NCBI GenBank assembly: GCA_015222205.1
Contig: JADFUW010000027.1
Span: forward strand, 1-63,290
Direction of reading: 5' to 3'
Origin: Chloroflexota bacterium
Lineage (GTDB): Bacteria; Chloroflexota; Dehalococcoidia; Dehalococcoidales; UBA5760
DNA: 63,290 nucleotides
A model generated the notes under the pieces. That model was not told the DNA's origin, did not search any database, and saw nothing but the letters and a program-made list of their open reading frames with translations. Of the stretch, positions 2,370-31,286 are shown in pieces (within the stretch, counting starts at the first letter, position 1; the number at the start of each line of letters is the position of its first letter). Both the position numbers and the translations under genes were made by a program.

Positions 2370-3602
2370 GTGGAGGGGTATATGTCCTCTAAACCAGTCG
2401 GCTACTTGCTGGGCAACTGTAGCCTGATAGTCATGCTCGTTGGATTAATCATTGCTGCCTACAACGGCAAGGTATTAATCGTCGTCCTGCTTGGACTGAT
2501 TCTGTCGGCTGCCGGCCTGGCTAAACTGTATAGCTACCTCTCATTGGTCAGGGTTCATTGCCAGCGGTCACTAAACTGGCAGCGTGTTTTCCCGGGAGAG
2601 CGTGTTGAAGTAAACATGCGTGTTGTAAACTTTAAGCCGCTACCCCTTCCCTGGCTAAAAGTGGATAGCGAAATACCAGCCGGGCTTATTCCTGAAGCGT
2701 CCCCGGCTAGAGATGGTTTGCTCAGTAAAGTGATAGCACTTCTATGGTATGCCCGAGCTAGTTGGCAACATAAGCTAGTTTGTCCAAGACGTGGATATTA
2801 CCCTCTGGGACAAATCAGAATTACATCTGGGGACATATTTGGCCTCTATCGCCGTACCCGCTTAAAGAAAGTAAGCGACCCTATCATTGTCTACCCCCGG
2901 CTTTTTGCTATTGATAAAATGGCAATACCATCTTGGTATCCCTTAGGAGAAACCAGAGCCGCACAGCGCATCTTTCGGGATCCAACTAGGGTTATTGGAA
3001 TACGTGACTATACTCCGCACGATAGCCCCCGCTATATTCACTGGAAGGCAACCGCCATTCATCAGAAACTACAGGTGAAGGTTTTCGAGCCGACGACAAA
3101 TCCAAAATTAGCCCTGCTTCTTGACCTCGAAAGCTTCGGCTACGATGAGGTTAGTAGTGAGCGCACTGGTTCACTGTCCAGCAAAACCGACGAAGTATTT
3201 GAAACAGCTCTCAGTACCGCTGCTTCTCTGGCTAAATATTTTATCGAGCACAAAAGTGCCGTTGGCCTATTTGTTAACACCTGTCTTGCTGACTCAGGCC
3301 GACCAGTGGGTATTCCCCCGGGTAGCGGGACTGGCCATCTGGTGAGTATCCTGGAGGCTTTAGCTAAAGTTACACCACACTCCAGTGGACTTCTCGCTGA
3401 ATTAATACAGGGCGAGCAGAAACACCTACCATGGGGCACCACTCTCATCTTTATACTATCTAAACCAACCGTCTCTATATCCAGGCTGCTATCTTCTCTT
3501 AAAGAAAGGGGGCACAAGTCGGTAACTATCCCTGTGGGTGAGCATGACTGGAAAGAGGATGATGCGCTAAATCAAAGCGAAGCTGTTGGGGTAATCAGCT
3601 AA
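2370..3602 (+). CDS. DUF58 domain protein (MoxR-associated)
   Basis: RRGYYPLG, IIVYPRL and GIRDYTPHDSPRYIHWKATA motifs; N-terminal TM segments. Confidence 0.85.
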   Translation: MEGYMSSKPVGYLLGNCSLIVMLVGLIIAAYNGKVLIVVLLGLILSAAGLAKLYSYLSLVRVHCQRSLNWQRVFPGERVEVNMRVVNFKPLPLPWLKVDSEIPAGLIPEASPARDGLLSKVIALLWYARASWQHKLVCPRRGYYPLGQIRITSGDIFGLYRRTRLKKVSDPIIVYPRLFAIDKMAIPSWYPLGETRAAQRIFRDPTRVIGIRDYTPHDSPRYIHWKATAIHQKLQVKVFEPTTNPKLALLLDLESFGYDEVSSERTGSLSSKTDEVFETALSTAASLAKYFIEHKSAVGLFVNTCLADSGRPVGIPPGSGTGHLVSILEALAKVTPHSSGLLAELIQGEQKHLPWGTTLIFILSKPTVSISRLLSSLKERGHKSVTIPVGEHDWKEDDALNQSEAVGVIS

Positions 3603-3613
3603 GAGGAAATTCA

Positions 3614-5005
3614 ATGAAAGCAAGTTGGTCTCGAATGGCTCTATATATAACCATAATGGGCATGGAGTGCTGCTGGCTCTTTGCCATCCTGTCGCTGGTA
3701 AATGGACTGGTTCTACAGGGACGCTTGTCCATTATTGGTCTTCTGGCTCTCTACCCCATCGCCTTTGGCATCAATATGCTGGTCGCACGGCTCAAGTTGC
3801 CCAAGGCTTATCTTAATCTCATTAGCTGGTTGATATGGGTTGGTGCCATGCTACTGCTGGTTAAGCTTCAGATCTACGGTAGCCTGGCATTATGGGACCA
3901 GAGCTGGCTAAGGGCAATTCCTGCAGCACTAAGGCAGGCACCCTATGATTTCCAGCCCGAGGTTCTGCTGTTTATCGGTAGCATTATCGTCTGGTGGCTC
4001 AGTCAGCGGTTGGTTCATCTTAAAACTGATTTTCCCAGGCTTGTTATTGAATTCCAGTTCGGCATACCGATGCTAATTATCGCCTTTATTATCAGCTCAT
4101 ATTTTGCCGGCGTATTGGAACATGCAGTATTTATTGCGGTTGCCTTTTTCGCCTTCGCTTTATCGGGACTGTCTATTAGTCACGCTCAGCAGACAGACAG
4201 TCCTATCTGGCAGATATATCGAGGTCGCTGGTTGGGTATTCTTATTGCCGGCATTAGTCTGGTGATTGCACTGGGCATGCTCAGTGGCTCTGCAGTTAAC
4301 CCTGATTTCTTCGAGCGTATCCTCAACATAGCAAAATGGGCTTGGGGAGTTGCGGTCAGGGCGTTAATATGGGTAGCCAATTTGCTACCCACTCTTGGAG
4401 CAGAACCATCTAGTGATCTACTTGGTGGTATTGATCAAGATGTCTTCATTAAACCAAAGACATACATATTCGGCATATCCGAATCACTAAGAAGTGGTCT
4501 TAGGTTTGCTCTAGCCATTTTTTTTGCTTTTTGGTTTATTTTTGCCCTGTGGCGAATCTCAGGGCAAGTGCTCAATTGGCTGAGTCGGCGGTTAGCCAGC
4601 ATGGCGGGGGTAGAGACGGAATCACTGTCCGGGGCATTCAGGTCTGATGTGCTCCGGCTGGCAAAGTGTATTTTGGCTAGGTTCCTGGGCTTTATGGTAT
4701 TCTTACGGCGAGGACGAAAAACCAGGAACCTTCCGCCGGAGGTAGCCTCTATTCAACAGCTTTATCACCAGATGGTACGCTGGGCAGCCGCCAAGGGTTG
4801 CCCCCGCCAACCGACACAGACGGCCTACGAATACCAGGCTCATCTGGTTGACCTGCTTCCTGAATTTGGGGAGGAGTTTAACCTCATTACCGGCCAGTTC
4901 GTTAGCGCCCGCTATGGTAGCGTAGTACCCGGAAGGGATGAATTAAGCCGGCTAAGACAAAGTTGGCGAAAGATACGGCAGATACGACGGAAAAGCCTGG
5001 CTTAG
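3614..5005 (+). CDS. Polytopic membrane protein with C-terminal DUF4129
   Basis: Many TM helices; C-terminal YHQMVRW..G.PRQPTQTAYEY...FVSARYG. Confidence 0.75.
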   Translation: MKASWSRMALYITIMGMECCWLFAILSLVNGLVLQGRLSIIGLLALYPIAFGINMLVARLKLPKAYLNLISWLIWVGAMLLLVKLQIYGSLALWDQSWLRAIPAALRQAPYDFQPEVLLFIGSIIVWWLSQRLVHLKTDFPRLVIEFQFGIPMLIIAFIISSYFAGVLEHAVFIAVAFFAFALSGLSISHAQQTDSPIWQIYRGRWLGILIAGISLVIALGMLSGSAVNPDFFERILNIAKWAWGVAVRALIWVANLLPTLGAEPSSDLLGGIDQDVFIKPKTYIFGISESLRSGLRFALAIFFAFWFIFALWRISGQVLNWLSRRLASMAGVETESLSGAFRSDVLRLAKCILARFLGFMVFLRRGRKTRNLPPEVASIQQLYHQMVRWAAAKGCPRQPTQTAYEYQAHLVDLLPEFGEEFNLITGQFVSARYGSVVPGRDELSRLRQSWRKIRQIRRKSLA

Positions 5006-5044
5006 CTTAACAGCTATATCATGATACAGGAGGGATAATGTATT

Positions 5045-6007
5045 ATGGGAGACTCTAATCAGCAACTGAATCAGATAGCAACGTTCACCAATCGTTTTAT
5101 GGATAATGTGGGTAAGGTAATTGTGGGTAGGAGGGATGCCGTAGAGCTTATTCTGGTGGCGCTGCTCTGTGAAGGACATGTCTTAATTGAGGATGTCCCG
5201 GGTACCGGAAAGACAATGCTGGCTAAGACAACTGCCAAGTCAGTCAGCTGTAGTTTTCAGAGAATTCAGTGCACCCCCGACCTATTACCGTCGGATATCA
5301 CCGGGATTCATTACTTCAATCAGAAGACCGCGGAGTTTGAGTTCCGCCCTGGTCCGATAATGGCTAATATCTTGCTGGTTGATGAAATAAACCGGGCTAC
5401 GCCTCGCACTCAATCATGCCTTCTAGAATGTATGCAGGAGCAGCAGGTTACTGTTGACCTCGAAACGATACTGCTACCGCGCCCTTTCCTGCTGATTGCT
5501 ACCCAGAATCCCGTAGAACTGGAGGGGACCTTTCCGTTGCCTGAAGCCCAGCTTGACCGATTCCTGATGAAGATTACCATGGGGTATCCTGAAGAAGACG
5601 AAGAAGAAGCCATTTTGCAGCGTTTCCAACAGGAGAATCCTCTGGCAAGTCTTCCCAGTGTTATCGAAACTAAAGAACTGCTAGCATTACAAAAACTGTC
5701 CCGCCAGGTATATGTGGAAGACTCGGTACGGAGCTATCTTCTCGCTATTACTAGGGCCACTCGTGAGCATGGGAGCGTTGAGCTGGGGGCTAGCCCGAGG
5801 GCTTCGCTGAACCTCGATTTGGCTTCAAGAGCGCTGGCTGCTGTTAGGGGACGTGGCTACGTTATCCCCGATGACGTAAAGTATCTAGCTCTCCCTATCC
5901 TGGGGCATCGTTTGATTGCAAAACCCGAAGCCAGGTTACGAAAACACTCAACAGAAGCCATATTGGGAGAAGTCCTCTCTAATTTACCTGTCCCCGTCGA
6001 GGAATAG
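5045..6007 (+). CDS. moxR: MoxR family AAA+ ATPase
   Basis: EDVPGTGKT, RIQCTPDLLPSD, DEINRA and TQNPVELEGTFPLPEAQLDRF motifs. Confidence 0.95.
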   Translation: MGDSNQQLNQIATFTNRFMDNVGKVIVGRRDAVELILVALLCEGHVLIEDVPGTGKTMLAKTTAKSVSCSFQRIQCTPDLLPSDITGIHYFNQKTAEFEFRPGPIMANILLVDEINRATPRTQSCLLECMQEQQVTVDLETILLPRPFLLIATQNPVELEGTFPLPEAQLDRFLMKITMGYPEEDEEEAILQRFQQENPLASLPSVIETKELLALQKLSRQVYVEDSVRSYLLAITRATREHGSVELGASPRASLNLDLASRALAAVRGRGYVIPDDVKYLALPILGHRLIAKPEARLRKHSTEAILGEVLSNLPVPVEE

Positions 6008-21630: not shown

Positions 21631-23613
21631 ATGATAGAAGACAAGAAGGATAAATATTTAGTCACCTTTCGGCCATCGGGCAAGAGAGGCTATATCGAAG
21701 CGGGGAGGAGTGTTGGGGAGGCTGCTCTGGAGCTGGGTGTGGACCTGGAGAACATCTGTGGAGGCAGAGGTGTCTGCGGCAAGTGCCGGGTTAGGATTAA
21801 AGAAGGCTTACTGGGTAGACATGACATCAAAACAGGGGTTAAAGGTCTTTCCCCTTTGACGGATTCTGAGCGAAAGCGCCTCACCAGACAGGAGAAATCA
21901 GACGGTTATCGGTTAGCCTGTCAAGCTCGTATTTATGATAACATCACCGTCTTTGTTCCCGAGGAGAGTCGGGTAGGGAAGCAGATTGTACGCAAAGCGG
22001 CTACAGAGAGGGCGGTTAACTTAGAACCAGCGGTCAAAAAATACTATGTAGAGATGAAACCGGCTAGCCTAGAGGAGCCACAGGCAGACTGGGAGCGCCT
22101 GCAAGCTGAGCTTAAGAAAAGGTTTGGCTTGGATAACTTGATTATTGACTATACGGTGCTTCTCAATTTACGGAAGGCGATGCGCTTAAACGATTGGAAA
22201 GTAACCGTAACACTCTGGATGAATAGGGAGGTTATTAAGATAGAGCCTGGATTTGTGGATAAAGGATACGGTCTGGCTGTGGATATAGGCACCACTACCA
22301 TGGTTGGTTACCTCTGTGACCTATCTGGTGGTGAAGTGGCGGCTAGCGATTCTATGATAAATCCGCAGGTGATTTATGGTGCCGATGTCATGTCTCGCAT
22401 CACCTATATTATGGCTAATGACAGTGGATTGGAACGTGCCCACCGGGCGGTTATTAAGGCCATTAATCAGATAGCACGGCGGGCTGCTCTTCAGGCCGGC
22501 GTTAAGCGAGAGGACATAGTTGATGTGAGTGTTGTCGGCAATACCTGCATGCATCATATCTTCCTCTCCATTGACCCATCTGGTTTGGGTCAGTCTCCCT
22601 TTACGCCGGCGATACATCATTCCCTGGATATTAAGGCTCGTGATTTAGGACTCAAAATATCACCTGGGGCTTATGTTCATGTTCTCCCCATTGAGGCTGG
22701 TTTCGTAGGCGCCGATAATGTAGGGGTGCTCATTGCCGAAGAGCCCCACAAACAGAATGATATTATGCTCATCATTGACATCGGCACTAATGGCGAACTT
22801 GTCTTGGGCAACCGTAAGAGGCTCATTTCCAGTTCCTGTGCTACTGGCCCGGCCTTTGAGGGAGCCCAGATTAAATACGGCATGTGTGCTGCTCCGGAAG
22901 CTATTGAGAAAGTAAAGATAGACCCGGTCACTAAAGAAGTGCACTTCAAGGTTATCGGCGGGGCGGACTGGGATGTGGATTCAGGTGCTGTGAAGGCAAA
23001 AGGTATCTGTGGCTCGGGGATAGTTGACGCTGTAGCTGAGATGTTGAAAGCAGGTATTTTACAGCGAAGTGGTCGCTTTAACATAGATTTAGGGACGCCT
23101 CGCCTGCGCCGCACTGAGAAAGGACCGGAGTTTGTTATTGCCTGGGCAAATGAAACAGCCATCGGCCAGGATATTACCCTGTGTCAGGGTGATATCAGGG
23201 CGGTGCAGTTAGCCAAGGGCGCTATGTATGCTGGGGCCAAGCTGATGATGTGCCGTTTAGGGGTGGCTAGATTGGATAAAGTTGTCCTGGCGGGGGCATT
23301 TGGTAGCTACATTGATAAGGAATCAGCCCTAACACTGGGGCTTTTTCCCGACTGTCCTTTGGAGGATATCTATTCTGTGGGTAATGCCGCTGGTGATGGA
23401 GCTCGCCTTGCCTTACTTAATATGGATAAAAGAAGTGAAGCTGATGAGATTGCCCGGGAAGTGGAGTATATAGAATTAGCTGTGGAACCAGACTTTGCTA
23501 CCCAGTTTAGCCAGGCTATGTACTTTCCCCACAAGAAGGATGAGTTTCCTCACCTGAGCGAGCTCTTTCAGGCAAAGAAAAATTCTGAAGTTAAGGGGAT
23601 GAAAACATGCTGA
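21631..23613 (+). CDS. RACo/DUF4445-type ASKHA ATP-dependent corrinoid reductive activator with N-terminal 2Fe-2S domain
   Basis: CGGRGVCGKC...RLACQ, DIGTTT, DIGTNGE, CATGPAFEG, GICGSG and LAGAFG motifs. Confidence 0.92.
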   Translation: MIEDKKDKYLVTFRPSGKRGYIEAGRSVGEAALELGVDLENICGGRGVCGKCRVRIKEGLLGRHDIKTGVKGLSPLTDSERKRLTRQEKSDGYRLACQARIYDNITVFVPEESRVGKQIVRKAATERAVNLEPAVKKYYVEMKPASLEEPQADWERLQAELKKRFGLDNLIIDYTVLLNLRKAMRLNDWKVTVTLWMNREVIKIEPGFVDKGYGLAVDIGTTTMVGYLCDLSGGEVAASDSMINPQVIYGADVMSRITYIMANDSGLERAHRAVIKAINQIARRAALQAGVKREDIVDVSVVGNTCMHHIFLSIDPSGLGQSPFTPAIHHSLDIKARDLGLKISPGAYVHVLPIEAGFVGADNVGVLIAEEPHKQNDIMLIIDIGTNGELVLGNRKRLISSSCATGPAFEGAQIKYGMCAAPEAIEKVKIDPVTKEVHFKVIGGADWDVDSGAVKAKGICGSGIVDAVAEMLKAGILQRSGRFNIDLGTPRLRRTEKGPEFVIAWANETAIGQDITLCQGDIRAVQLAKGAMYAGAKLMMCRLGVARLDKVVLAGAFGSYIDKESALTLGLFPDCPLEDIYSVGNAAGDGARLALLNMDKRSEADEIAREVEYIELAVEPDFATQFSQAMYFPHKKDEFPHLSELFQAKKNSEVKGMKTC

Positions 23614-24410
23614 TAATTGGAGAGAAGATAAATGCATCTATAAAGTCGGTGAGAACGGCAATAATGGAAAGGGATGTCAACCTTTTGCAAAACCTGGCTA
23701 AATCTCAGGCGGAGAGCGGCGCCGATTATATAGACGTCAACGTTTCTACTGAGAAGGGAAGGGATTTTGACATAGAGAGTATGGAATGGGCGGTGGAAAA
23801 GATTCAGGAAGTAGTGGATAAACCTTTGACAATTGATTCCCCAGATGCCAAAACCCTTGAGGCTGGGCTACGAAGATGTCAGCAAAAGGCCATGATAAAC
23901 TCAATAACTGCTGAGCCAGGGAAACTAGAGAACATTCTTCCCTTAGCCAAGGAATTTGATTCTGAAATCATAGCCTTAGCATTAGGAGATGAAGGGATTC
24001 CACCTGAGGTAGAGGGAAGGCTTAGGGCTTGCCAGAAGATAGCAGAGAGTGCCCAGAAGCAGGGAATAGCTTTGGAGAAATTGTATTTTGACCCTCTGGT
24101 GCTCACTGTGTCAGCAGATACCTCCCAAGGAATTATTACCCTTGAGGCTTTAAGGGGGATAAAATCTCAGTTACCCGAAGCGAAGACAACGCTTGGTTTG
24201 AGCAATATATCTTTTGGCCTTCCGGGAAGGTCGCTGGTAAACAGGAGCTTCCTGCTTATGGCAATTTATGCCGGTCTTGATTCTGCAGTTATTGACCCTC
24301 TGGATAGGAAACTTATGTCCGTAGTAAAAGCTGGAGAAATGGTTTTGGGTAAGGATAATTATTGCGTGAATTACTTACGAGCCTACAAGAAGGGCCTTCT
24401 AGAATTTTAG
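23607..24410 (+). CDS. acsE: Methyltetrahydrofolate:corrinoid methyltransferase (AcsE-like, pterin-binding)
   Basis: IIGEKIN, IDS, MINS, FDPLV and GLSNISFGLP motifs. Confidence 0.85.
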   Translation: MLIIGEKINASIKSVRTAIMERDVNLLQNLAKSQAESGADYIDVNVSTEKGRDFDIESMEWAVEKIQEVVDKPLTIDSPDAKTLEAGLRRCQQKAMINSITAEPGKLENILPLAKEFDSEIIALALGDEGIPPEVEGRLRACQKIAESAQKQGIALEKLYFDPLVLTVSADTSQGIITLEALRGIKSQLPEAKTTLGLSNISFGLPGRSLVNRSFLLMAIYAGLDSAVIDPLDRKLMSVVKAGEMVLGKDNYCVNYLRAYKKGLLEF

Positions 24411-24548
24411 GCGTTGTTATACACTTTCCCATTGGGAAAGGCAATATAGCCGGGATAAGTCAAATAGTGAACCCATTTAGTAAACTGGCCGGCAGGATAA
24501 GATTGAGAAGCAAAGAGTAACATCAGAAGTTCTGCCTATTGTCACCCT

Positions 24549-24624
24549 TGGTGGAGATAGGGGGATTCGAACCCCCAACCTCTGCGATGCGAACGCAGCG
24601 CTCTCCCTACTGAGCTATATCCCC
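24549..24624 (-). tRNA. tRNA-Ala(CGC)
   Basis: GGGGATATAGCTCAG...CTGCG-TTCGCAT-CGCAG...GTTCGAATC...CTCCACCA cloverleaf with G3:U70 pair. Confidence 0.97.
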
Positions 24625-24746
24625 ATGTCAGTAAAAATTATAACATACTTCACTGAACTTGGTGCCCTCTTTGGACAATTCAATAGATTCAAGCGTTGCA
24701 GTCACGCCGATTAATAGCTCCTCAGTATTCGTTATTAAGGGCAAAA

Positions 24747-26378
24747 TTATCTTGGATGCTTTTGCCGATAGTACCCATAGTACCAGGTTAGCCAAGCTAA
24801 CAATGTGAGAGCAGCAATGAGCCCTCCAATAAGCCACCAGTTGGTCCATACCAAAGTCTGGAATTCTCCACTCAGGTCACCTATCTGTACTACATAGTGG
24901 CCTGGCTTATTTTCAGTAACAGTGAAGATTACCTCCCGACTTTGTCCGGGACGAAGGGTGATATTCTTGGTGTCTTGTGTTTGCCCATTTATCTTGAGGT
25001 CGGCGACATAGCTGCCTTCCTGCCCACCATCGTTACCTATCTCGGTGCTGATGGTAACACTTTTTGCTGTTCTTACCATAAGGGTAAAGGGTTCCCATAT
25101 CCCTATCTTTTCCTGGCTGGGCGTGATGGTCAAGCCACCGGCCACAAAGTGGGCAGGTGGAGGTGGCGGCGGTGGGGGAGGTGGAGGCGAAGGTTCTGGT
25201 GAAGAAGGTGGGGATGGTGATGGGGGTAACGTCGCCATTACGGCGAGTGAAGAAAAGTGGTTTACCAGTCCAGCTGCCGTACCGACCTCAGCCACTCTAC
25301 CTGGGACACCTTGTGATTTAACCCATTTGCCGAGTTCAGTATCGTAATAGGCGATAAACAACGAGGTAGCATCCTCAGGCAGTTCCTCGGTGGGATAACT
25401 TAATAACACTGTAATTGGTGAGCCGAAGGTAACCATAGGACATTTTGGACAATCTGGGTCTTCCCAATACACTTCCTTATATCCGATAAAGTCATAAACT
25501 TGACCAACTGCTGCCATATCATCCGGTATTGGTGGCGGGTCCTCAGACGGCCTCATTACCACTATTTCTGGGTAGTTCCCACATCCTGGATGCTCACCAC
25601 AAATTACCGGCGTGCCATCGTCAATTACTAAGAAGTGTATATCTTCGGGGTCAGAGGGCTCGTAGTCTTTGAGAACCTTGTTGCCACAGCATCCGACCTT
25701 TATCTTGGTTATTTCACCCAGCATGTCTATCAGGAAATAACACGCCCCTCCACCACCGCCAGTGGGGCCACGGCTACCAGTGGTAGTGGGAGGAGGAGGA
25801 TACTCCTCGAGTGCATAATTTATGTCAAAAGATAGGCAATCTCCTTGAACATCATTACCTGTCGGGCAGGGCAGTTCCCAGTCCCAATCCAGGGTAACGG
25901 TATCACCAGAATTGAGTGGAATTATCTTGACATAATTTGGATCCAAAAAACTCTGCGGAAGGTTAAGGAGCGTCGTTGGAAGGCTTATATTGGTGCTTAA
26001 TCGGCCAGGAGGAATAGAAGAGAGGTCAAACAGTAAGTGGTCAATAAGCTCACCGGGCTCTGAGGTATCGCCCGTCTCAGGTTCCGGGTTTAAGCCTTCA
26101 GTGCTCTCAATATCGCTTATCCAGATGGTAACAAAACCATCTTCGTCACCAGCATTGTGCAGGGTGACCGTCTCAACGCCGCTATCGCAGGGCATAATAT
26201 TCTCTATATTCCAGCTAGTAGCTCCTCCACCCCCCAGCACCAGGTCTACCGGGTCAGCAGCCTGAACTGGGGTTGGTAAAGAGCCAAGCAGAGCCAGCCC
26301 TATTACCGCCGCTAGAAACAATCTGGTGGCGTATCTCGTAGTTCTGCCATTCATAATAGCTTCTTTTAACCTGTTCAT
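24747..26378 (-). CDS. Membrane-anchored TasA/camelysin-like protein with Pro-rich linkers, CARDB-like Ig domain and C-terminal TM; lacks the donor strand
   Basis: Sec signal ending VQA; NIENIMPCDS..VTLHNAG and TGNDVQGDCLSFDI align with the neighbouring TasA-like subunit; C-terminal TM plus basic tail. Confidence 0.75.
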   Translation of the reverse strand: MNRLKEAIMNGRTTRYATRLFLAAVIGLALLGSLPTPVQAADPVDLVLGGGGATSWNIENIMPCDSGVETVTLHNAGDEDGFVTIWISDIESTEGLNPEPETGDTSEPGELIDHLLFDLSSIPPGRLSTNISLPTTLLNLPQSFLDPNYVKIIPLNSGDTVTLDWDWELPCPTGNDVQGDCLSFDINYALEEYPPPPTTTGSRGPTGGGGGACYFLIDMLGEITKIKVGCCGNKVLKDYEPSDPEDIHFLVIDDGTPVICGEHPGCGNYPEIVVMRPSEDPPPIPDDMAAVGQVYDFIGYKEVYWEDPDCPKCPMVTFGSPITVLLSYPTEELPEDATSLFIAYYDTELGKWVKSQGVPGRVAEVGTAAGLVNHFSSLAVMATLPPSPSPPSSPEPSPPPPPPPPPPPAHFVAGGLTITPSQEKIGIWEPFTLMVRTAKSVTISTEIGNDGGQEGSYVADLKINGQTQDTKNITLRPGQSREVIFTVTENKPGHYVVQIGDLSGEFQTLVWTNWWLIGGLIAALTLLAWLTWYYGYYRQKHPR

Positions 26379-26398
26379 TGCCCGCTCATCATTTATAG

Positions 26399-27268
26399 TT
26401 ATACACCCGTTGCATCAGCGTTATTACCGTCAAGTGCGAACTCAGATGTGGCATTTTCTTCAATGCCGACTCCATCAAATAGGTTGGTTATGTCATACTC
26501 ATACATCTTATCTGTACCATCATCCACCACCCACAGCGATGTACCATCAAGCATAGCCCCGGCTGGACTCTGGAGCTTATTGTTAGTTGTGTACTCTAAT
26601 AGTACCTTTGAGACGGTTACTGGTGTGCCTCCAGGGTGTGGGTACTGATAGAACCTTGTTTCTTTCGGCGTGCTCGTGCTGTAATCCACTACATAGAGGT
26701 AGTTACTGTCGATAGCTAATCCCGCGGCTCCTTTGTTATCAGTATCAAGAGTAATCTTCTGAGCAGCGTTTATGTCACCAGGTCCAGAAAATGCTGTACC
26801 CAGTGGATATCGGTATATATTCTTATCGTTACCCGAAAGCACCCACATTTCAGTACCATAAATAGCTAAACCATCTATGTTCCCAACACTACTCGGCCCA
26901 ACAGCCTTCAAGAGCTTCTTGGAGACATCTTCAAGAGTCCCACAACAGTCGTATTTATAGACCTGCTTCCGAGCATGGTCGATGACATAAACATTCGTTC
27001 CCACCGCAGCCACGCCAGTGGGGAACCCGTTGTCGCCCGAAAGGCCAAAGCTATCTACCGGAGTACCGGAAGCATTGTACTTGTAGATTTTAGCATCAGG
27101 CTTGTCGGAGACATTAAACTTCTCGCAGGTACATACAACCTCCTCTACCCATGCCGTAAACTGATTACCCGTTGAGGTCTCGGTATCACTAAAAAAAGCG
27201 GAGGTGCCACGGCTCGTTATCCCCAGAAGAAGGATAAGAGCTAATGACAGAATTAAGACCTTCTTCAC
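26399..27268 (-). CDS. SipW-cognate signal peptide protein with NHL-like beta-propeller repeats
   Basis: GTSA|FFSDTETSTGNQFTA, then about four GxAxxGxxxYVxD..IYxY repeats. Confidence 0.75.
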   Translation of the reverse strand: MKKVLILSLALILLLGITSRGTSAFFSDTETSTGNQFTAWVEEVVCTCEKFNVSDKPDAKIYKYNASGTPVDSFGLSGDNGFPTGVAAVGTNVYVIDHARKQVYKYDCCGTLEDVSKKLLKAVGPSSVGNIDGLAIYGTEMWVLSGNDKNIYRYPLGTAFSGPGDINAAQKITLDTDNKGAAGLAIDSNYLYVVDYSTSTPKETRFYQYPHPGGTPVTVSKVLLEYTTNNKLQSPAGAMLDGTSLWVVDDGTDKMYEYDITNLFDGVGIEENATSEFALDGNNADATGV

Positions 27269-27370
27269 CTATGGCACCTCCTTTCTTTCAGTAGTCTCTC
27301 TATTCCTAGCGGGCTTCCGCCCGCCATTGCACAAATTCAACCATATGCCGGCTCCGAAGTAAAGGTGAAG

Positions 27371-27433
27371 CCGACCCCACCGCCAACCATGACACTGGGT
27401 TGGTGGTGGAGCGGGACTCCCGCCCCACCACCA
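27371..27433 (-). promoter_or_regulatory. Strong intercistronic hairpin(s) after the TasA-like major subunit gene
   Basis: 27401-27415 pairs with 27419-27433; alternatively 27371-27388 pairs with 27398-27414. Confidence 0.6.
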
Positions 27434-27472
27434 CTTTACTGCCACCTCCATCTAACCAACTAGCCACGGGCA

Positions 27473-28555
27473 TTAAGGTGTGTCAAGGTCGTTGTGCCAG
27501 ATGAGATAGGTCTCAAACAGGTAATCGCCGGAGTTCCAGGCTGTCATCTGACCACTAGCACCAGGGGTAGTGGTGCTATAGTCGCTGGATGGGACGAGCC
27601 ATATCTTGGCGCCGAGTGCCAAGTTGTCATCGGGCGAAGTTGGCAGGTCTATAGCAAGGTCTTGTGAACCCGACGTAGATACGATAGCGCCCGAGCCATC
27701 GGTGGTAAAGGTGGCAATCAGAGCACCAGGATTGTTGCCCGCCCATGGGTCGGCGTAGTAGATGAGGCTGTAATCGGTAGTGTTCTGAAGTCCAATGGCA
27801 CTGAAGGTGTAGTCAAAGGTTGAGCCCACCGTGTTGTAATCCAGGTATCCTGCCGTGCCATCACCGAACAGCACCAACCAGTTCTGGCTTTCATCCTTGT
27901 TCTCCAATACTAGCTGGGTGCCTGGCATCTGCTGGGCAAGGAACTCAACGGTGAAGGTCAGGGTATCGCCCTGATACTCATTGCCGGTAGCAGCATCCAG
28001 GTGATAGCTCTGGATGACATGCATCTTTCCACCCGGCGGAATTGAGCCCAATGGTACAGACACGCTGGCGAGGTCGCTAATGAGCACATTCTCGTTAAAC
28101 AGGGTCTGGTGCCATTGGTCCGTCGTTCCCCCAGTTGTAGGGTCGATAATCTCCGAGGACAGGTCATACAAAATCCAGGCATCGATGTCGTTAATGCTGT
28201 CGTTGGGGTCTACCTGCCACTCAGGCTCAGAAGAACATGTGGCACTCCCTACAGGATACGCTGGAGTACCACCGCCGGTGACGAAATCCGTGAGGTGCTT
28301 CCAGACGACGCAGGGGTTAGTGCCCACGTTGGTGATGTCATACTCTACATACCACGTCTCACACGGCTTGGCATCTTCAATGGTGAACGGCGCTGACCAC
28401 GGGTTATCGCCATCAATGGCGATGTCAATGGTTCCCGCCGAGAAGGTGTTATCCGTGCTGGTCTCAGTATCGGTGAACAAAGCCCAGGTTCCACTAGCCA
28501 CCAGGCTGATTACCACCGCTACCGCAATCGCTAAGCCAAGTATTCTCTTTTTCAT
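27473..28555 (-). CDS. TasA/CalY (camelysin) family fibre subunit with an extra C-terminal domain
   Basis: GTWA|LFTDTETSTDNTFSAGTIDI SipW-type N-terminus; ITNVG and GNEYQGDTLTFTVEFLAQQ motifs. Confidence 0.85.
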   Translation of the reverse strand: MKKRILGLAIAVAVVISLVASGTWALFTDTETSTDNTFSAGTIDIAIDGDNPWSAPFTIEDAKPCETWYVEYDITNVGTNPCVVWKHLTDFVTGGGTPAYPVGSATCSSEPEWQVDPNDSINDIDAWILYDLSSEIIDPTTGGTTDQWHQTLFNENVLISDLASVSVPLGSIPPGGKMHVIQSYHLDAATGNEYQGDTLTFTVEFLAQQMPGTQLVLENKDESQNWLVLFGDGTAGYLDYNTVGSTFDYTFSAIGLQNTTDYSLIYYADPWAGNNPGALIATFTTDGSGAIVSTSGSQDLAIDLPTSPDDNLALGAKIWLVPSSDYSTTTPGASGQMTAWNSGDYLFETYLIWHNDLDTP

Positions 28556-28720
28556 TTCTATTATCTCCTTTAATTAATACCGATATTATTCGCCAATTGG
28601 CGAACTCGAAGGGTTAAAAAAATCCTGTTCTCTTTTAATGCACCTCCTTTCATATCTTTATTTAATGCGCTTTTTGTGTCTCTATCTAGTTATGCTGTTC
28701 CCAAGGCATCACCCCTTTTA

Positions 28721-29212
28721 TTAGGCTACCTTCTCAGATTCCCTCAGTTTTTTGCGTATGTCCCGGATAAGGAAGGCAACCAGGACGGCAGCCGGAATAA
28801 CAACTACCAACAACCAGCCGGGCTTGGTCCGGATGAAATTGGACACATAACCCATGCCGGGAATTTTGAATAAGTAAACACCTCTGACATCGGACAGGCT
28901 GACTGCCCACGGGTCAGTGTCTTCCACGGCGTCACCCTTGGTGAGCAGGGTGCTACCATCAACCGAGAGCACCCTGTGCGTGACTAGCTCCGCCCCATGG
29001 AGGTAGGTTACGATGCTCCCCGGTTTTGCCTCACCGCGTATTGGGCCATCTAAGGGACCAATGACTACCATATCCCCCATATTGATAGCTGGCTTCATGC
29101 TCTCACTCCTCACCAGGTACATGTTGTAGTCAGGTGAGAAATGCACAAAAACAAACCCGCCGATAACAACAGCCAGTACTGTGAAAACTACCCAGCCAAG
29201 AACCTTCTTCAC
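28721..29212 (-). CDS. sipW: Signal peptidase I, SipW/ER type (S26B)
   Basis: VRSESMKPAINMGD, VTHRV (Ser-His) and TKGDA..D motifs; N- and C-terminal TMs. Confidence 0.92.
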   Translation of the reverse strand: MKKVLGWVVFTVLAVVIGGFVFVHFSPDYNMYLVRSESMKPAINMGDMVVIGPLDGPIRGEAKPGSIVTYLHGAELVTHRVLSVDGSTLLTKGDAVEDTDPWAVSLSDVRGVYLFKIPGMGYVSNFIRTKPGWLLVVVIPAAVLVAFLIRDIRKKLRESEKVA

Positions 29213-29306
29213 TATCTAAATCACCTCGAGATAAACCAGCAGCTTCCTGTATCTATGCCTCTATTTAGTTAGTCGCTGATTGGGGGAGAAATCCCTCATA
29301 TGGGTG

Positions 29307-29334
29307 AGTATACACCTAAATTACTAAATGTCAA
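29307..29334 (-). promoter_or_regulatory. Sigma70-like promoter of the sipW operon
   Basis: Minus-strand TTGACA-16-TATACT. Confidence 0.55.
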
Positions 29335-29516
29335 CATATATTAACCTCATTTTAAGTTACCATTGGATAAATTTAGATACTATTGGTGCTTGTCAATACC
29401 CTTCTAACAGAAGCTATCCAACACTCCGCTATAATGTTAAGTAAAGGCAAGGTAATTGAACTTGCCTTTTCTCTTATGGGATATATATAGTATTAGTACT
29501 AATGTATTATGCTTTA

Positions 29517-29799
29517 TCAAGCGAGGCTGGTAGGGCAAGTGTGGTCAAATGCTTTAACGCTGACCTTCGGGCAAGAGGGCTTACCATTTTTTGTGTTGAT
29601 TTCCTTAAGCAGCTCGTTATCCAGAGCTTGCTGAGCTATTATCCGCTTCAGCCTGGCGTTTTCTTCCTCCAATACCTTCAAGTGTTTAAGCTCAGGGAGA
29701 GTCATCCCACCATATCTGCTTGTTTTCACGATTACCCTCCTGTAGTTATTTTACAGGAGTCTCGCATTCAATGTGGGCCTATTTTCGGGGGGCAGGCCA
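29517..29799 (-). mobile_element. IS3-family remnant: left IR, internally deleted orfA, frameshift site
   Basis: End TGGCCTGCCCCCCGAAAATAGG; MKTSRY fused to GGMTLPELKHLKVLEEENARLKRIIAQQALD; AAAAAATGGTAAG slippery site; no DDE domain. Confidence 0.8.
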
Positions 29800-29951
29800 G
29801 CAGCACTCTTGAATACTTTACTTAATGCCTAACTTAATACCTGCTTCTAGGGCAGTCGTCTTTGTGAACTAGACAGAGATGACCGAAGTGGGGTAATATT
29901 TAACAGGTTATATTATTGGCTGGGGTTAAAGAGCCACCAGGGGGTGATAGA

Positions 29952-31286
29952 ATGAGCGAAAAGGAAAAAGCAAAAGAGTATGTCCTCAAAACAGTCAAGG
30001 ATAGGGATGTCAAGTTAGTAAGTCTCTGGTTCACAGATATTCTAGGCTTTCTTAAGAGTTTTGACATTGCCCCCCGCGGGTTGGAAGGGGCTTTGGCTGA
30101 CGGGATAGGATTTGACGGCTCCTCTGTTGAGGGGTTTGCCAGGGTTGATGAGAGCGATATGATAGCCCTGCCCGACCCGGCTACTTTTCAGGTCCTGCCC
30201 TGGAGCCAAACGGAATATCCGGTAGCTAGAATGTTCTGTGATATTGTAAGACCCGGCGGAAAGCCCTTTGAGGGTGACCCCCGCTATGTATTAAAGAGAA
30301 ACCTCGGGAGAGCATCTGACCTGGGTTATACCTTCAATGTAGGCCCGGAACTGGAGTACTTCTATTTTCAGAACCCAGAGGGGACCCACATTCTGGATGA
30401 AGGTGGTTATTTTGATTTGACGCCTCCTGATATAGCCAGTGGTTTAAGACTGGAGACGGTACTTATCCTGGAGCAGATGGGTATTGGCATTGAGACCAGT
30501 CATCATGAGGTGGCTACGAGCCAGCATGAGATAGACCCGCTTTATACCGATGCCCTGACCATGGCTGAGAGCGTCATGACCTGCCGATTGGTTATTAAAG
30601 AGGTGGCTCAGAGACACGGTGTCTACGCAACTTTTATGCCTAAGCCTATCTTCGGTGTCAACGGTAGTGGTATGCATGTGCACCAGTCATTGTTTCAAGG
30701 TAACAGGAATGCCTTTTTTGATAAGAATGACCCATACTATCTATCAAAAGTAGCTAGACACTACACTGCTGGTCTATTGAAGCATGCTCCTGAGATTACC
30801 TCGGTGGTTAGCCAGTGGCTCAATTCCTATAAGCGGTTGGTTCCCGGCTATGAGGCGCCGGTATATATCTCCTGGGCAAGAAGAAACCGGTCAGATATGA
30901 TTAGGGTTCCTGAGTATCAATTAGGGAGGGAAAAGGCGACCAGGGTTGAATTTAGGGTTCCTGACCCGGCCTGCAATCCTTACCTGGCTTTCAGTGTAAT
31001 GCTAGCCGCTGGTCTGGAGGGCATTGAGCAGAAGTATGAACTGGCTGACCCTGTTGAGGAAAATGTTTTTGAGATGAGCAGTGAGGAGAAGGAGCAAAGG
31101 GGAATAGGTACTTTGCCCATGAACCTGTCTGACGCGATAAGTGTAACCGAAAAAAGTGAGCTGGTAAGAAAAGTCCTTGGCGACCATGTCTTTGATAGCT
31201 TTATCAGAAATAAGAAGATTGAGTGGGAGCAGTACCGTAGTCAGGTAACGGAATATGAACTAAAAAGATACTTACCTATTCTCTAA
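29952..31286 (+). CDS. glnA: Glutamine synthetase type I
   Basis: FDGSS, GPELEY, HHEVA, FMPKP..GVNGSGMH and KRLVPGYEAP motifs. Confidence 0.97.
   Translation: MSEKEKAKEYVLKTVKDRDVKLVSLWFTDILGFLKSFDIAPRGLEGALADGIGFDGSSVEGFARVDESDMIALPDPATFQVLPWSQTEYPVARMFCDIVRPGGKPFEGDPRYVLKRNLGRASDLGYTFNVGPELEYFYFQNPEGTHILDEGGYFDLTPPDIASGLRLETVLILEQMGIGIETSHHEVATSQHEIDPLYTDALTMAESVMTCRLVIKEVAQRHGVYATFMPKPIFGVNGSGMHVHQSLFQGNRNAFFDKNDPYYLSKVARHYTAGLLKHAPEITSVVSQWLNSYKRLVPGYEAPVYISWARRNRSDMIRVPEYQLGREKATRVEFRVPDPACNPYLAFSVMLAAGLEGIEQKYELADPVEENVFEMSSEEKEQRGIGTLPMNLSDAISVTEKSELVRKVLGDHVFDSFIRNKKIEWEQYRSQVTEYELKRYLPIL

Follow-up and report, generated by a model that had tools for sequence, protein, structure and literature searches.

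How fibres of the TasA type are attached to the cells that make them is unsettled even in Bacillus, and a short operon in a bacterium of the order Dehalococcoidales (Chloroflexota) raises the question of what sits at the base of such a fibre. The operon lies in a window of 63,290 nt, which is the whole stretch of DNA that was analysed (contig JADFUW010000027.1 of assembly GCA_015222205.1). Its four co-directional genes follow one another in the order SipW-type signal peptidase, TasA-like pilin (gene A), NHL propeller carrying a donor strand only (gene B) and, as the final gene, an open reading frame (ORF) of 543 amino acids at 24747..26378 on the minus strand, referred to here as the target. 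An earlier reading of the sequence, the original prediction, had seen in this ORF an acceptor-only TasA paralogue mounted on a stalk. After the analysis described below we consider it rather probable that the target is the terminal subunit of a donor-strand fibre of the TasA type, acceptor-only, anchored in the membrane and possibly releasable, which would make its family a concrete candidate for the fibre base.

The layout of the target, from the N-terminus to the C-terminus, is as follows:
26259..26378, minus strand: Sec-type signal peptide, residues 1-40, cut predicted from the sequence at VQA/AD
25800..26258, minus strand: donorless TasA-like jelly-roll ("socket"), residues 41-193, from hhalign, structure prediction and similarity to TasA 5of1_B
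25809..25856, minus strand: NDVQGDCLSFDINYAL, residues 175-190, equivalent of TasA beta9 (N220-A230), mapped via profile alignments onto the structure of PMC10151520
25746..25799, minus strand: Pro/Thr/Gly linker PPPPTTTGSRGPTGGGGG, residues 194-211, from the sequence
25233..25745, minus strand: predicted ZU5/GAIN-like (MAIN-like) beta-sandwich, residues 212-382
25251..25259, minus strand: H374-F375-S376, candidate HX(S/T) site of autoproteolysis, at the turn that precedes the last strand, from model and motif
25149..25232, minus strand: Pro-rich spacer, residues 383-410, from the sequence
24843..25148, minus strand: CARDB-like Ig domain, residues 411-512, below the PF07705 cut-off in the target
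24750..24842, minus strand: C-terminal transmembrane helix, residues 513-536, and basic tail YRQKHPR, from hydropathy

We compared the head of the mature protein with the pilin encoded two genes upstream. BLASTP aligned the target with gene A at E 1e-5 (63 identical positions out of 265), and the alignment recovered all four motif pairs that had been matched by eye. When the N-domains of 40 homologues of the target, which we call anchors after their proposed role, were compared as a profile with 20 cognate pilins, hhalign gave 99.5% (E 2.8e-23, 144 columns). Column 4 of the anchor profile corresponded to column 40 of the pilin profile (AGTlDL) and, because anchors align from this column, pilin columns 1-39, that is, signal and donor, have no anchor counterpart. 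In the same way, the mature start ADPVDLVLGG of the target aligns to A40-GTIDIAIDG of gene A, so that the gene A donor strand LFTDTETSTDNTFS finds no counterpart in the target. The donor strand that the original prediction took to be missing is thus indeed absent, although its length is 14 residues and not about 16. The pilin family profile A3 matched the TasA fibre (8aur, 1.3e-7) and the TasA monomer (5of1, 1.4e-7) in the PDB, with FsDtetstgNtftAGtlDL of the profile aligned to FNDIK-SKDATFASGTLDL of TasA, and it matched anchors of other genomes from profile position 40-43 onward only. In the TasA filament, as described in PMC10151520, the donor segment D31-S41 runs antiparallel to A230-N220 of the next subunit. 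The target begins at the equivalent of TasA residue 41 and therefore carries no donor segment. The acceptor strand is kept: residues 180-190, DCLSFDINYAL, align to TasA beta9 (N220-A230), and the most conserved 11-mer among the 40 anchor N-domains is QGDCLSFDINY (178-188), which scores 0.89 against a mean of 0.56.

The predicted structure of the head points to the same family. The AlphaFold2 (AF2) model of residues 41-200 had a mean predicted local distance difference test (pLDDT) score of 87.6 and a predicted template modelling (pTM) score of 0.81. Searching the PDB with this model, Foldseek returned two chains at E<=1e-3, both of them TasA. With VIA-align, the best entry was 5of1_B, with a Z score of 9.3 and a root-mean-square deviation (rmsd) of 3.2 over 138 aligned residues (model 1-155 corresponding to TasA 41-235), followed by 5of2 (Z 8.5); the next entry scored 6.4, the fibre form of TasA 6.0 and a Pyrobaculum bundling pilin 5.5. 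In the ESM Atlas, the head resembled Peptidase_M73 clusters with template modelling scores of 0.76 and 0.74. The structural similarity to TasA, on which the original prediction depended, was therefore found. At the sequence level, PF12389 was matched by 13 of the 40 anchor N-domains at E<=0.01; the anchor N-domain profile gave no match at E<=10 against PDB sequences, and a phmmer search of the PDB with the whole target returned only Pro-rich low-complexity matches. BLASTP, profile-profile comparison and predicted fold agree on an acceptor-only TasA paralogue, as had been proposed, and by homology and modelled fold the head is, as a domain, a member of the TasA/Peptidase_M73 (PF12389) superfamily. 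The target as a whole is not classed as a TasA-type pilin, because it lacks the combination of SipW-type signal and donor strand.

The absence of a SipW-type signal had also been noticed from the sequence, and it holds. The first 40 residues comprise a K/R-rich basic n-region, the 15-residue h-region LFLAAVIGLALLGSL and then PTPVQA/ADP, with A40 invariant across 66 aligned homologues, and the SipW-type signal model TIGR04088 found no match in the target. Elsewhere in the genome (contig C19, 160 bits) there is a separate LepB-type signal peptidase besides the SipW-type one of the operon. The switch of signal type in the target is meaningful because the genome has both kinds of peptidase.

The genes that stand with the target in the operon bear directly on its role:
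28721..29212, minus strand: SipW/archaeal-type signal peptidase I, operon gene 1 (TIGR02228, 5.3e-19, 68.6 bits against a cut-off of 51.85)
27473..28555, minus strand: gene A, TasA-like pilin (PF12389, 6.2e-15; TIGR04088, 2.5e-9)
26399..27268, minus strand: gene B, SipW-type signal, donor-like strand and propeller (TIGR04088, 6.4e-7)
24747..26378, minus strand: target gene, 543 amino acids, last of the operon (ORF; 178 database homologues at E<=1e-3)

Gene A consists of a SipW-type signal, the donor strand, a jelly-roll body and a C-terminal extension. This extension (27473-27907, minus strand) continues for 145 residues past the TasA body and has no Pfam match, while related pilins are mostly about 200-230 residues long. 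The association between anchor, pilin and peptidase genes is not peculiar to the window. We collected 41 anchor loci, 27 of which have at least 2500 nt upstream; SipW was found in 25 of these 27, a pilin in 24 and both in 23. One locus (L014) contains two SipW-type peptidase genes, at 3549-4016 and 5015-5539, one of them directly upstream of the anchor. Downstream, anchors have no conserved partner: the 36 ORFs that follow them in related loci belong to housekeeping genes without any relation to the system. We also compared the anchor profile with 81 sampled genomes of the order. It matched 11 of them (E<=1e-15), eight strongly (E<=1e-25, open frames of 414-704 residues) and three weakly, mostly in pilin-sized frames. 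The pilin profile matched 19 of the 81 genomes, including all eight with a strong anchor.

Loss of the donor strand is a property of the whole family. At E<=1e-3 the N-domain profile matched 989 cluster representatives, a number that falls to 294 at E<=1e-10 and to 170 at E<=1e-30. A regular expression for the donor was found in one of 41 anchors in loci (a truncated ORF) compared to 30 of 40 pilin or SipW-signal ORFs; it occurred in two of 120 database homologues and, among 150 representatives, in none (loose version) or two (strict version). A hidden Markov model (HMM) of the donor had no match in 26 of the 27 anchors of related loci and gave -1.3 bits in the remaining one (the anchor of the window is not among these 27). 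In the quick trees that we built, which carry SH-aLRT (approximate likelihood-ratio) support and are unrooted, so that no direction of transfer is claimed, the 40 anchors and the 20 pilins were split by one branch, with a support of 100 in one tree and 94 in others. Anchors of Methanomassiliicoccales and Methanosarcinaceae nested among those of Dehalococcoidia in a quick tree; TasA-type anchors are shared between Chloroflexota and methanogenic archaea. In the 18 loci that have both genes, the donor segment had the highest mean pairwise identity (70%), followed by the anchor domain (44%) and the pilin body (28%). This ranking fits a socket reading the conserved strand, though other explanations of these sequence identities exist.

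A second family property is the membrane span. All 34 complete relatives have a single transmembrane helix downstream of the N-domain, and a strict hydropathy threshold was passed by 114 of the 150 representatives, many of the others being fragments or falling just below it. The shortest anchors (281-318 residues) consist of N-domain and transmembrane helix alone, from which it follows that the stalk is variable and that socket plus membrane anchor form the core. In the target, linker, helix and basic tail are present as originally claimed, and the poly-Pro spacer, which had been placed at 25150-25230, was measured at 25149-25232. The CARDB-like Ig domain fared less clearly: the target itself scores 18.9 bits with PF07705, below the Pfam cut-off of 22.7, but 55 of 66 homologues match at E<=1e-3. 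Some relatives end differently. One anchor-type protein (P0302) has a dockerin (PF00404, 27.4 bits) in place of the transmembrane helix, and in the archaeal loci L028, L030, L034, L035, L036 and L038, plus L024, a cytoplasmic part of 83-210 residues without Pfam match follows the helix. Another protein (P0232, one of the 150 representatives) continues into a HAMP-PAS-histidine kinase; we rejected this as a genuine fusion, given that a basic stop-transfer tail is followed by a second pair of transmembrane helices and the whole looks like two adjacent genes read through.

Anchoring in the membrane is also in keeping with the rest of the genome (0.94 Mb in 32 contigs, 89.8% complete, with Dehalococcoidales as its relatives). 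Searches for penicillin-binding protein (PBP) transpeptidase, FtsW/RodA and MurG found nothing in it, although they matched every bacterial control genome. At this level of completeness, the result suggests a cell without peptidoglycan, in which anchoring to a wall by LPXTG or S-layer homology (SLH) modules would therefore be impossible.

An apparent replicate of the arrangement came from a genome of the same genus, G075. At locus L049 (G075:C15) the gene order is peptidase, pilin, homologue of gene B (35% identity, 1e-49) and then, at 3650-4756 and in the fourth operon slot, a protein of 368 residues with a K/R-rich start, a hydrophobic segment of 22 residues, a spacer of about 170 residues and a C-terminal part of 161 residues. 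These 161 residues are 78% identical to the genome's own pilin from LDLNIDGG onward, the donor motif being absent, and in quick trees the protein clusters with that pilin and apart from the anchors (SH-aLRT 98). The architecture is rare, with one further sequence among 92 matches. If its N-terminal segment stays uncleaved, which is subject to doubt, this protein would be, judging from its sequence, an independently evolved, membrane-tethered and donorless pilin body in the same slot.

If the target is an acceptor without donor, which protein is the donor without acceptor? Gene B, whose stop is separated from the target by 20 nt, carries a donor-like strand, FFSDTETSTGNQFTAW, after its SipW-type signal and continues into an NHL/SGL-type beta-propeller (some homologues match PF01436 or PF08450) without a TasA body; the pilin profile matches it at positions 3-40 only. 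Its donor segment FFSDTETSTGNQF is nearly identical to LFTDTETSTDNTF of gene A, and the donor-strand stretch LFTDTETSTDNTFSAG is a candidate partner of the socket. By eye, 15 of the 27 loci have a donor-only gene directly upstream of the anchor. The pilin HMM matched 10 of these 15 at positions 2-40 only (E<=0.05) and the body in none, and their C-terminal modules are Kelch or NHL propellers, Laminin_G_3 or DUF2341, which are typical binding modules. Many donor-only proteins share the motif QAW(T/A)S..W.QT(T/S)..DF..G after the donor. A laminin-G-like domain is also described for the proposed tip protein of the haloarchaeal Tat-fimbriae (Tafi; PMC11821415). The free N-terminal donor-like strand behind a SipW-type signal, by which a TapA-like initiator would be recognized, is absent from the target and present in gene B, which from its sequence is a candidate donor-only tip or initiator. 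With gene B donor-only and the target acceptor-only, the operon encodes a shaft plus one specialist per fibre end, and by the same logic of strand donation an acceptor-only protein can sit only at the end opposite the donor-only one.

The close coupling of these two genes also admits the view that the target pairs with gene B alone, forming a two-protein stalked adhesin, while gene A makes free matrix fibres. The frequent adjacency of the donor-only gene, with the short gap in the window, and the near identity of the two donor segments agree with this. Against it, in four loci (L025, L037, L039 and L042) the gene just upstream of the anchor is a pilin, and no donor-only gene was seen there; no feature of the sequences would keep gene A from binding too, and the two-protein arrangement is the case of a terminal anchor with n=0 pilins. 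We regard such exclusive pairing as improbable, the least likely of the alternatives considered here.

The part of the stalk next to the head had been described as a Cys-rich domain. This description has to be corrected: in the predicted structure, the domain has a ZU5/GAIN-like fold. Its sequence profile had no PDB match and only Pfam matches at E>=0.0094, far below any cut-off; sequence searches being uninformative, the fold is known from the model only. The AF2 model of residues 206-382, built from 11 sequences, reached pLDDT 90.1 and pTM 0.85. It superposed on ankyrin ZU5 with Z 9.0-9.8 (rmsd 2.8-3.2, about 129 aligned), on the GAIN domains of BAI3 (4dlo_B, Z 7.8), CD97 (7.4) and ADGRB2 (7.2) and on the FIIND of NLRP1 and CARD8 (Z 6.3 and 5.9), compared to at most 4.5 for unrelated chains. 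The neighbours of the domain in the ESM Atlas were ZU5/SpvB-N-like. In the model, the middle domain is therefore of the GAIN_B/ZU5-like fold, with ZU5 scoring above GAIN. As for the cysteines, the target has 10, most of them specific to one clade. Of 66 homologues, 28 have both Cys64 and Cys171 (window ~26185-26187 and 25864-25866), which lie in the head, and the other 38 have neither, so that no homologue has only one of the two; C213, C230, C231 and C266 are cysteines of that clade too, and C260 and C313 are found in 54 and 53 of the 66 homologues, respectively. The conserved cysteines may form disulfides, though all could derive from one lineage.

The middle domain drew our attention because of the tripeptide HFS. 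In the model it occupies residues 169-171, between the strands E162-170 and E173-176, where the penultimate strand ends and the chain turns towards the last one. According to a recent preprint, microbial GAIN-like MAIN domains cleave themselves at HX(S/T); where the site is HFS, the cut falls in a beta-turn between F and S, and the two fragments remain together. The domains are described there as envelope-tethered, and shear is proposed to make them release their surface cargo (bioRxiv 10.64898/2026.05.12.724683). Neither TasA, camelysin, filament and pilus nor words in fimbri- occur in the main text of that preprint, whose supplements may list further domain combinations. By analogy with MAIN domains, position and motif suggest that the stalk of the target may cleave itself at F375/S376.

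Taken together, these observations can be arranged into a mechanism. The housekeeping signal peptidase would remove the Sec signal, while the C-terminal helix would stay in the membrane with the basic tail inside. The stalk, made of CARDB-like Ig domain, Pro-rich spacer and GAIN/ZU5-like domain, would hold the TasA-like jelly-roll off the membrane; a polyproline-II helix rises about 3.1 Å per residue, and the 28-residue Pro-rich piece would, if extended, span roughly 8-9 nm. In TasA fibres, each subunit n passes its strand to subunit n+1, and with this polarity the order in the fibre of this operon would be gene B (tip or initiator), n copies of gene A and the target (base). The head would take the donor strand of the last pilin, the incoming strand displacing a self-complementing strand as described for soluble TasA (PMC9674648). 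Having no donor strand of its own, the head cannot extend the fibre; once captured by the target, the fibre would stop growing and be fastened to the membrane of an apparently peptidoglycan-less cell. At the HFS joint, a cut between F375 and S376 with the halves held non-covalently would let the anchor give way under force.

The original prediction of a pilus anchor is thus backed indirectly by the linkage with SipW and pilin genes, the transmembrane helix in 34 of 34 relatives, the conserved donor-pairing strand and the replicate in G075. Several observations weigh against it, and we consider them together. The target N-domain has no direct Pfam match to PF12389. A structure search independent of Foldseek returned no chain with Z>=8 for the head (top score 6.8); TasA was represented there by its fibre form alone, which at Z 6.0 was tied with generic beta-sandwiches. 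Since this wide search holds only the fibre form and nothing in it exceeds Z 6.8, the match to the TasA fold rests on the monomer entries. The head model lies nearest the closed, self-complemented monomer of TasA (Z 9.3), its similarity to the fibre form being lower (Z 6.0). An open groove, which had been expected in the predicted structure, did not appear, and the modelled domain could be permanently closed, like the Ig domain of TapA. In the G075 protein, the N-terminal hydrophobic segment might be removed as a signal instead of serving as an anchor. In the order sample, 11 of the 19 pilin-bearing genomes have no strong anchor, which means that fibres can exist without one and that the anchor is an optional accessory. 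As to expression, contigs from RNA libraries (two lake-water metatranscriptomes of two studies) align at 90-97% identity with stretches of the genes for target, pilin and peptidase, and none with gene B; they come from relatives, DNA carry-over is possible and they are a weak hint. A base-terminating anchor does not say what holds the growing fibre. Finally, the HFS motif is unevenly distributed: 38 of the 66 close homologues have HX[ST] at its column, 13 have Y in place of H, and a regular expression found it in 72 of 120 database homologues, six of 34 locus anchors and six of 256 other ORFs. Given the 38 of 66 homologues and six of 34 locus anchors, self-cleavage, if real, is not family-wide.

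The closed model in particular leaves room for a stand-alone surface protein, with a closed TasA-like head that binds a ligand or contacts the matrix, carried on a releasable stalk and co-regulated with the fibre genes without ever being joined to them. W56, W86, W165 and W167, which are invariant in anchors and by eye mostly not conserved in the pilin profile, could fill the core of such a head. TapA shows that a stable domain in systems of this kind need not accept strands (PMC10151520), and MAIN-domain proteins are described as generally displaying adhesion or enzyme domains for release (bioRxiv 10.64898/2026.05.12.724683). Nevertheless, soluble TasA is likewise closed before it accepts a strand (PMC9674648), and for this reason the closed head does not discriminate between a stand-alone protein and a fibre anchor. 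The best conserved part of the domain is the beta9 block that pairs with the donor, the gene is tightly linked to those of pilin and SipW, and a protein such as that of G075, which reuses its own pilin body at 78% identity, is hard to square with an unrelated ligand function. We therefore hold the stand-alone protein to be unlikely, yet the foremost of the alternatives.

The question of what retains a growing fibre leads to another possibility, namely that the target is a transient membrane receptor for pilin donor strands (an assembly platform, a holdase or a sensor of assembly) and not a permanent base. The logic of binding would be the same as for the terminal anchor, which, taken as a terminator only, leaves that retention unexplained. 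The cytoplasmic tails of 83-210 residues, found in Methanomassiliicoccales and some other relatives, and the single representative that runs into a HAMP-PAS-histidine kinase would suit a receptor. The tail of the target has seven residues, too short for signalling, and the kinase "fusion" resembles read-through of two adjacent genes. Donor-strand complementation is, moreover, practically irreversible in chaperone-usher and TasA fibres. A transient receptor accordingly appears slightly less likely still than the stand-alone protein.

Within the preferred reading of the target as a terminal anchor, a more complete picture can be drawn: a three-part pilus with a donor-only tip (lectin or propeller), a shaft and an acceptor-only base, in which a self-cleaved GAIN-like joint acts as a force-limited "fuse". 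A pull on the tip would detach the whole fibre together with the socket, leaving the membrane stub behind. We put this forward tentatively, as clearly less likely than the anchor itself. If true, it would provide wall-less Dehalococcoidia with a force-limited fuse for adhesion or dispersal, and the GAIN-like HFS domain would link donor-strand matrix fibres with microbial autoproteolytic release domains in a mechanically releasable pilus anchor. If the socket functions as proposed, it would be a portable donor-strand receptor that can be mounted on transmembrane helices, on dockerin or, in methanogens, on transmembrane helices with cytoplasmic domains.

The surroundings of the operon are unrelated to fibres. 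The flanks encode a RACo-type corrinoid activase, a pterin-binding protein and glnA. The RACo-type activase, with a 2Fe-2S domain, and the pterin-binding methyltransferase-like gene (21631-24410, plus strand) converge on the end of the operon, and a tRNA-Ala(CGC) gene (24549-24624, minus strand) lies on the strand of the target, 122 nt downstream of its stop codon. One further feature precedes the operon:
29307..29334, minus strand: sigma-70-like promoter match TTGACA-16-TATACT, 11/12, upstream of the peptidase gene, a match to the consensus only

Promoter-like sites in the region were not more numerous than in shuffled sequences. The idea that the operon is a mobile island was rejected, as no att-like direct repeat was present across 24400-30000 and neither GC nor third-position GC (GC3) was odd; in another anchor locus (L005), a tyrosine recombinase gene follows the anchor. 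By habitat, the best DNA matches were metagenomes of cold seeps and marine sediments, the top one possibly being the source sample.

How does the target compare with systems already described? TasA homologues are reported in Chloroflexota and Methanomassiliicoccales (PMC9245690), and a 2026 preprint states that none of the archaeal ones has been characterized (bioRxiv 10.64898/2026.01.04.697558). We found no description of the target's anchor family in the literature on SipW/TasA/camelysin in Dehalococcoidia, Chloroflexota and Methanomassiliicoccales or on acceptor-only or terminating TasA anchors. The family can be recognized by the signature of Sec signal, donorless TasA body and transmembrane helix. 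Anchors and the adjoining donor-only proteins define both ends of a polymer, so that a minimal operon of four genes is enough to test how its polarity and length are controlled. The family adds to the surface machinery common to Dehalococcoidia and methanogenic archaea, beside the archaellum clusters described in Chloroflexota (bioRxiv 10.1101/2025.02.02.636118).

The Bacillus subtilis operon tapA-sipW-tasA offers the most familiar comparison. Like the target, TapA is an accessory protein of TasA fibres encoded together with SipW, and it has historically been called an anchoring/assembly protein. It is described as donor-only: it gives its N-terminal strand to the first TasA, is itself unable to open a cleft and therefore stands at the filament beginning (PMC10151520, PMC9674648). 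The target reverses this arrangement, being a socket without strand, with a transmembrane helix in addition and a proposed place at the opposite fibre end. To present it as an alternative to TapA, as the original prediction did, was thus misplaced, since the counterpart of donor-only TapA in this operon is gene B.

PapH is a base subunit that donates its strand. It is grouped with FimI, also of chaperone-usher pili, and with ElrB of the Enterococcus Elr pilus as a last subunit that ends growth and fixes the base (PMC10673952; bioRxiv 10.64898/2026.10.17.759780). In these systems, the base donates a strand and the tip adhesin is acceptor-only, so that polarity would be reversed in the operon of the target. 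For envelope proteins bearing SLH or LPXTG modules, encoded in bacterial abpX loci of the TasA superfamily, donor-strand complementation is the predicted means of attachment to the fibril (bioRxiv 10.64898/2026.01.04.697558), and the ESM Atlas neighbours of the head include a cluster from Bacillota that combines LPXTG with Peptidase_M73 (PF12389). Such anchors bind peptidoglycan or secondary wall polymers, whereas the target has a transmembrane helix on a long stalk, in a genome where PBP, FtsW/RodA and MurG were not found. With MAIN proteins such as B. subtilis YfkN, the target shares tethering to the envelope, a GAIN/ZU5-like sandwich and HX(S/T) in the turn before the last strand; unlike the target, YfkN is sortase-anchored, and in the target the cargo would be a fibre socket and the cleavage is predicted only.

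By architecture and locus, the closest published analogue of the target is haloarchaeal TafF. In the Tat-fimbriae of Haloarcula hispanica (TafF) and in Natrinema (TafF1/TafF2), these proteins are proposed to accept the strand of the final pilin, to stop assembly and to serve as the anchor of the fibre (PMC11821415, PMC12337348). Three structural features of this functional class, a donorless pilin-like domain, a membrane span and a location in a pilin locus, are present in the target. As described in these reports, TafF also combines the pilin-like domain and membrane span(s) with a Sec signal while its pilins use a dedicated route, and its locus includes a tip protein bearing a lectin-like domain as well as a dedicated signal peptidase of the archaeal type. 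Unlike the target, TafF has three C-terminal transmembrane helices (one N-terminal helix in Natrinema) and no GAIN-like, Pro-rich or CARDB stalk; its role is deduced from AlphaFold models only, and Tafi pilins form a separate, Tat-exported branch of the superfamily. The idea of an acceptor-type membrane anchor is therefore already in print, both for TafF and for the SLH/LPXTG proteins of abpX loci, and what the target adds to these systems is a family with its signature, a modular stalk that ends in a single C-terminal helix, donor-only tip genes as its counterparts and a GAIN-like HFS module in a fibre anchor.

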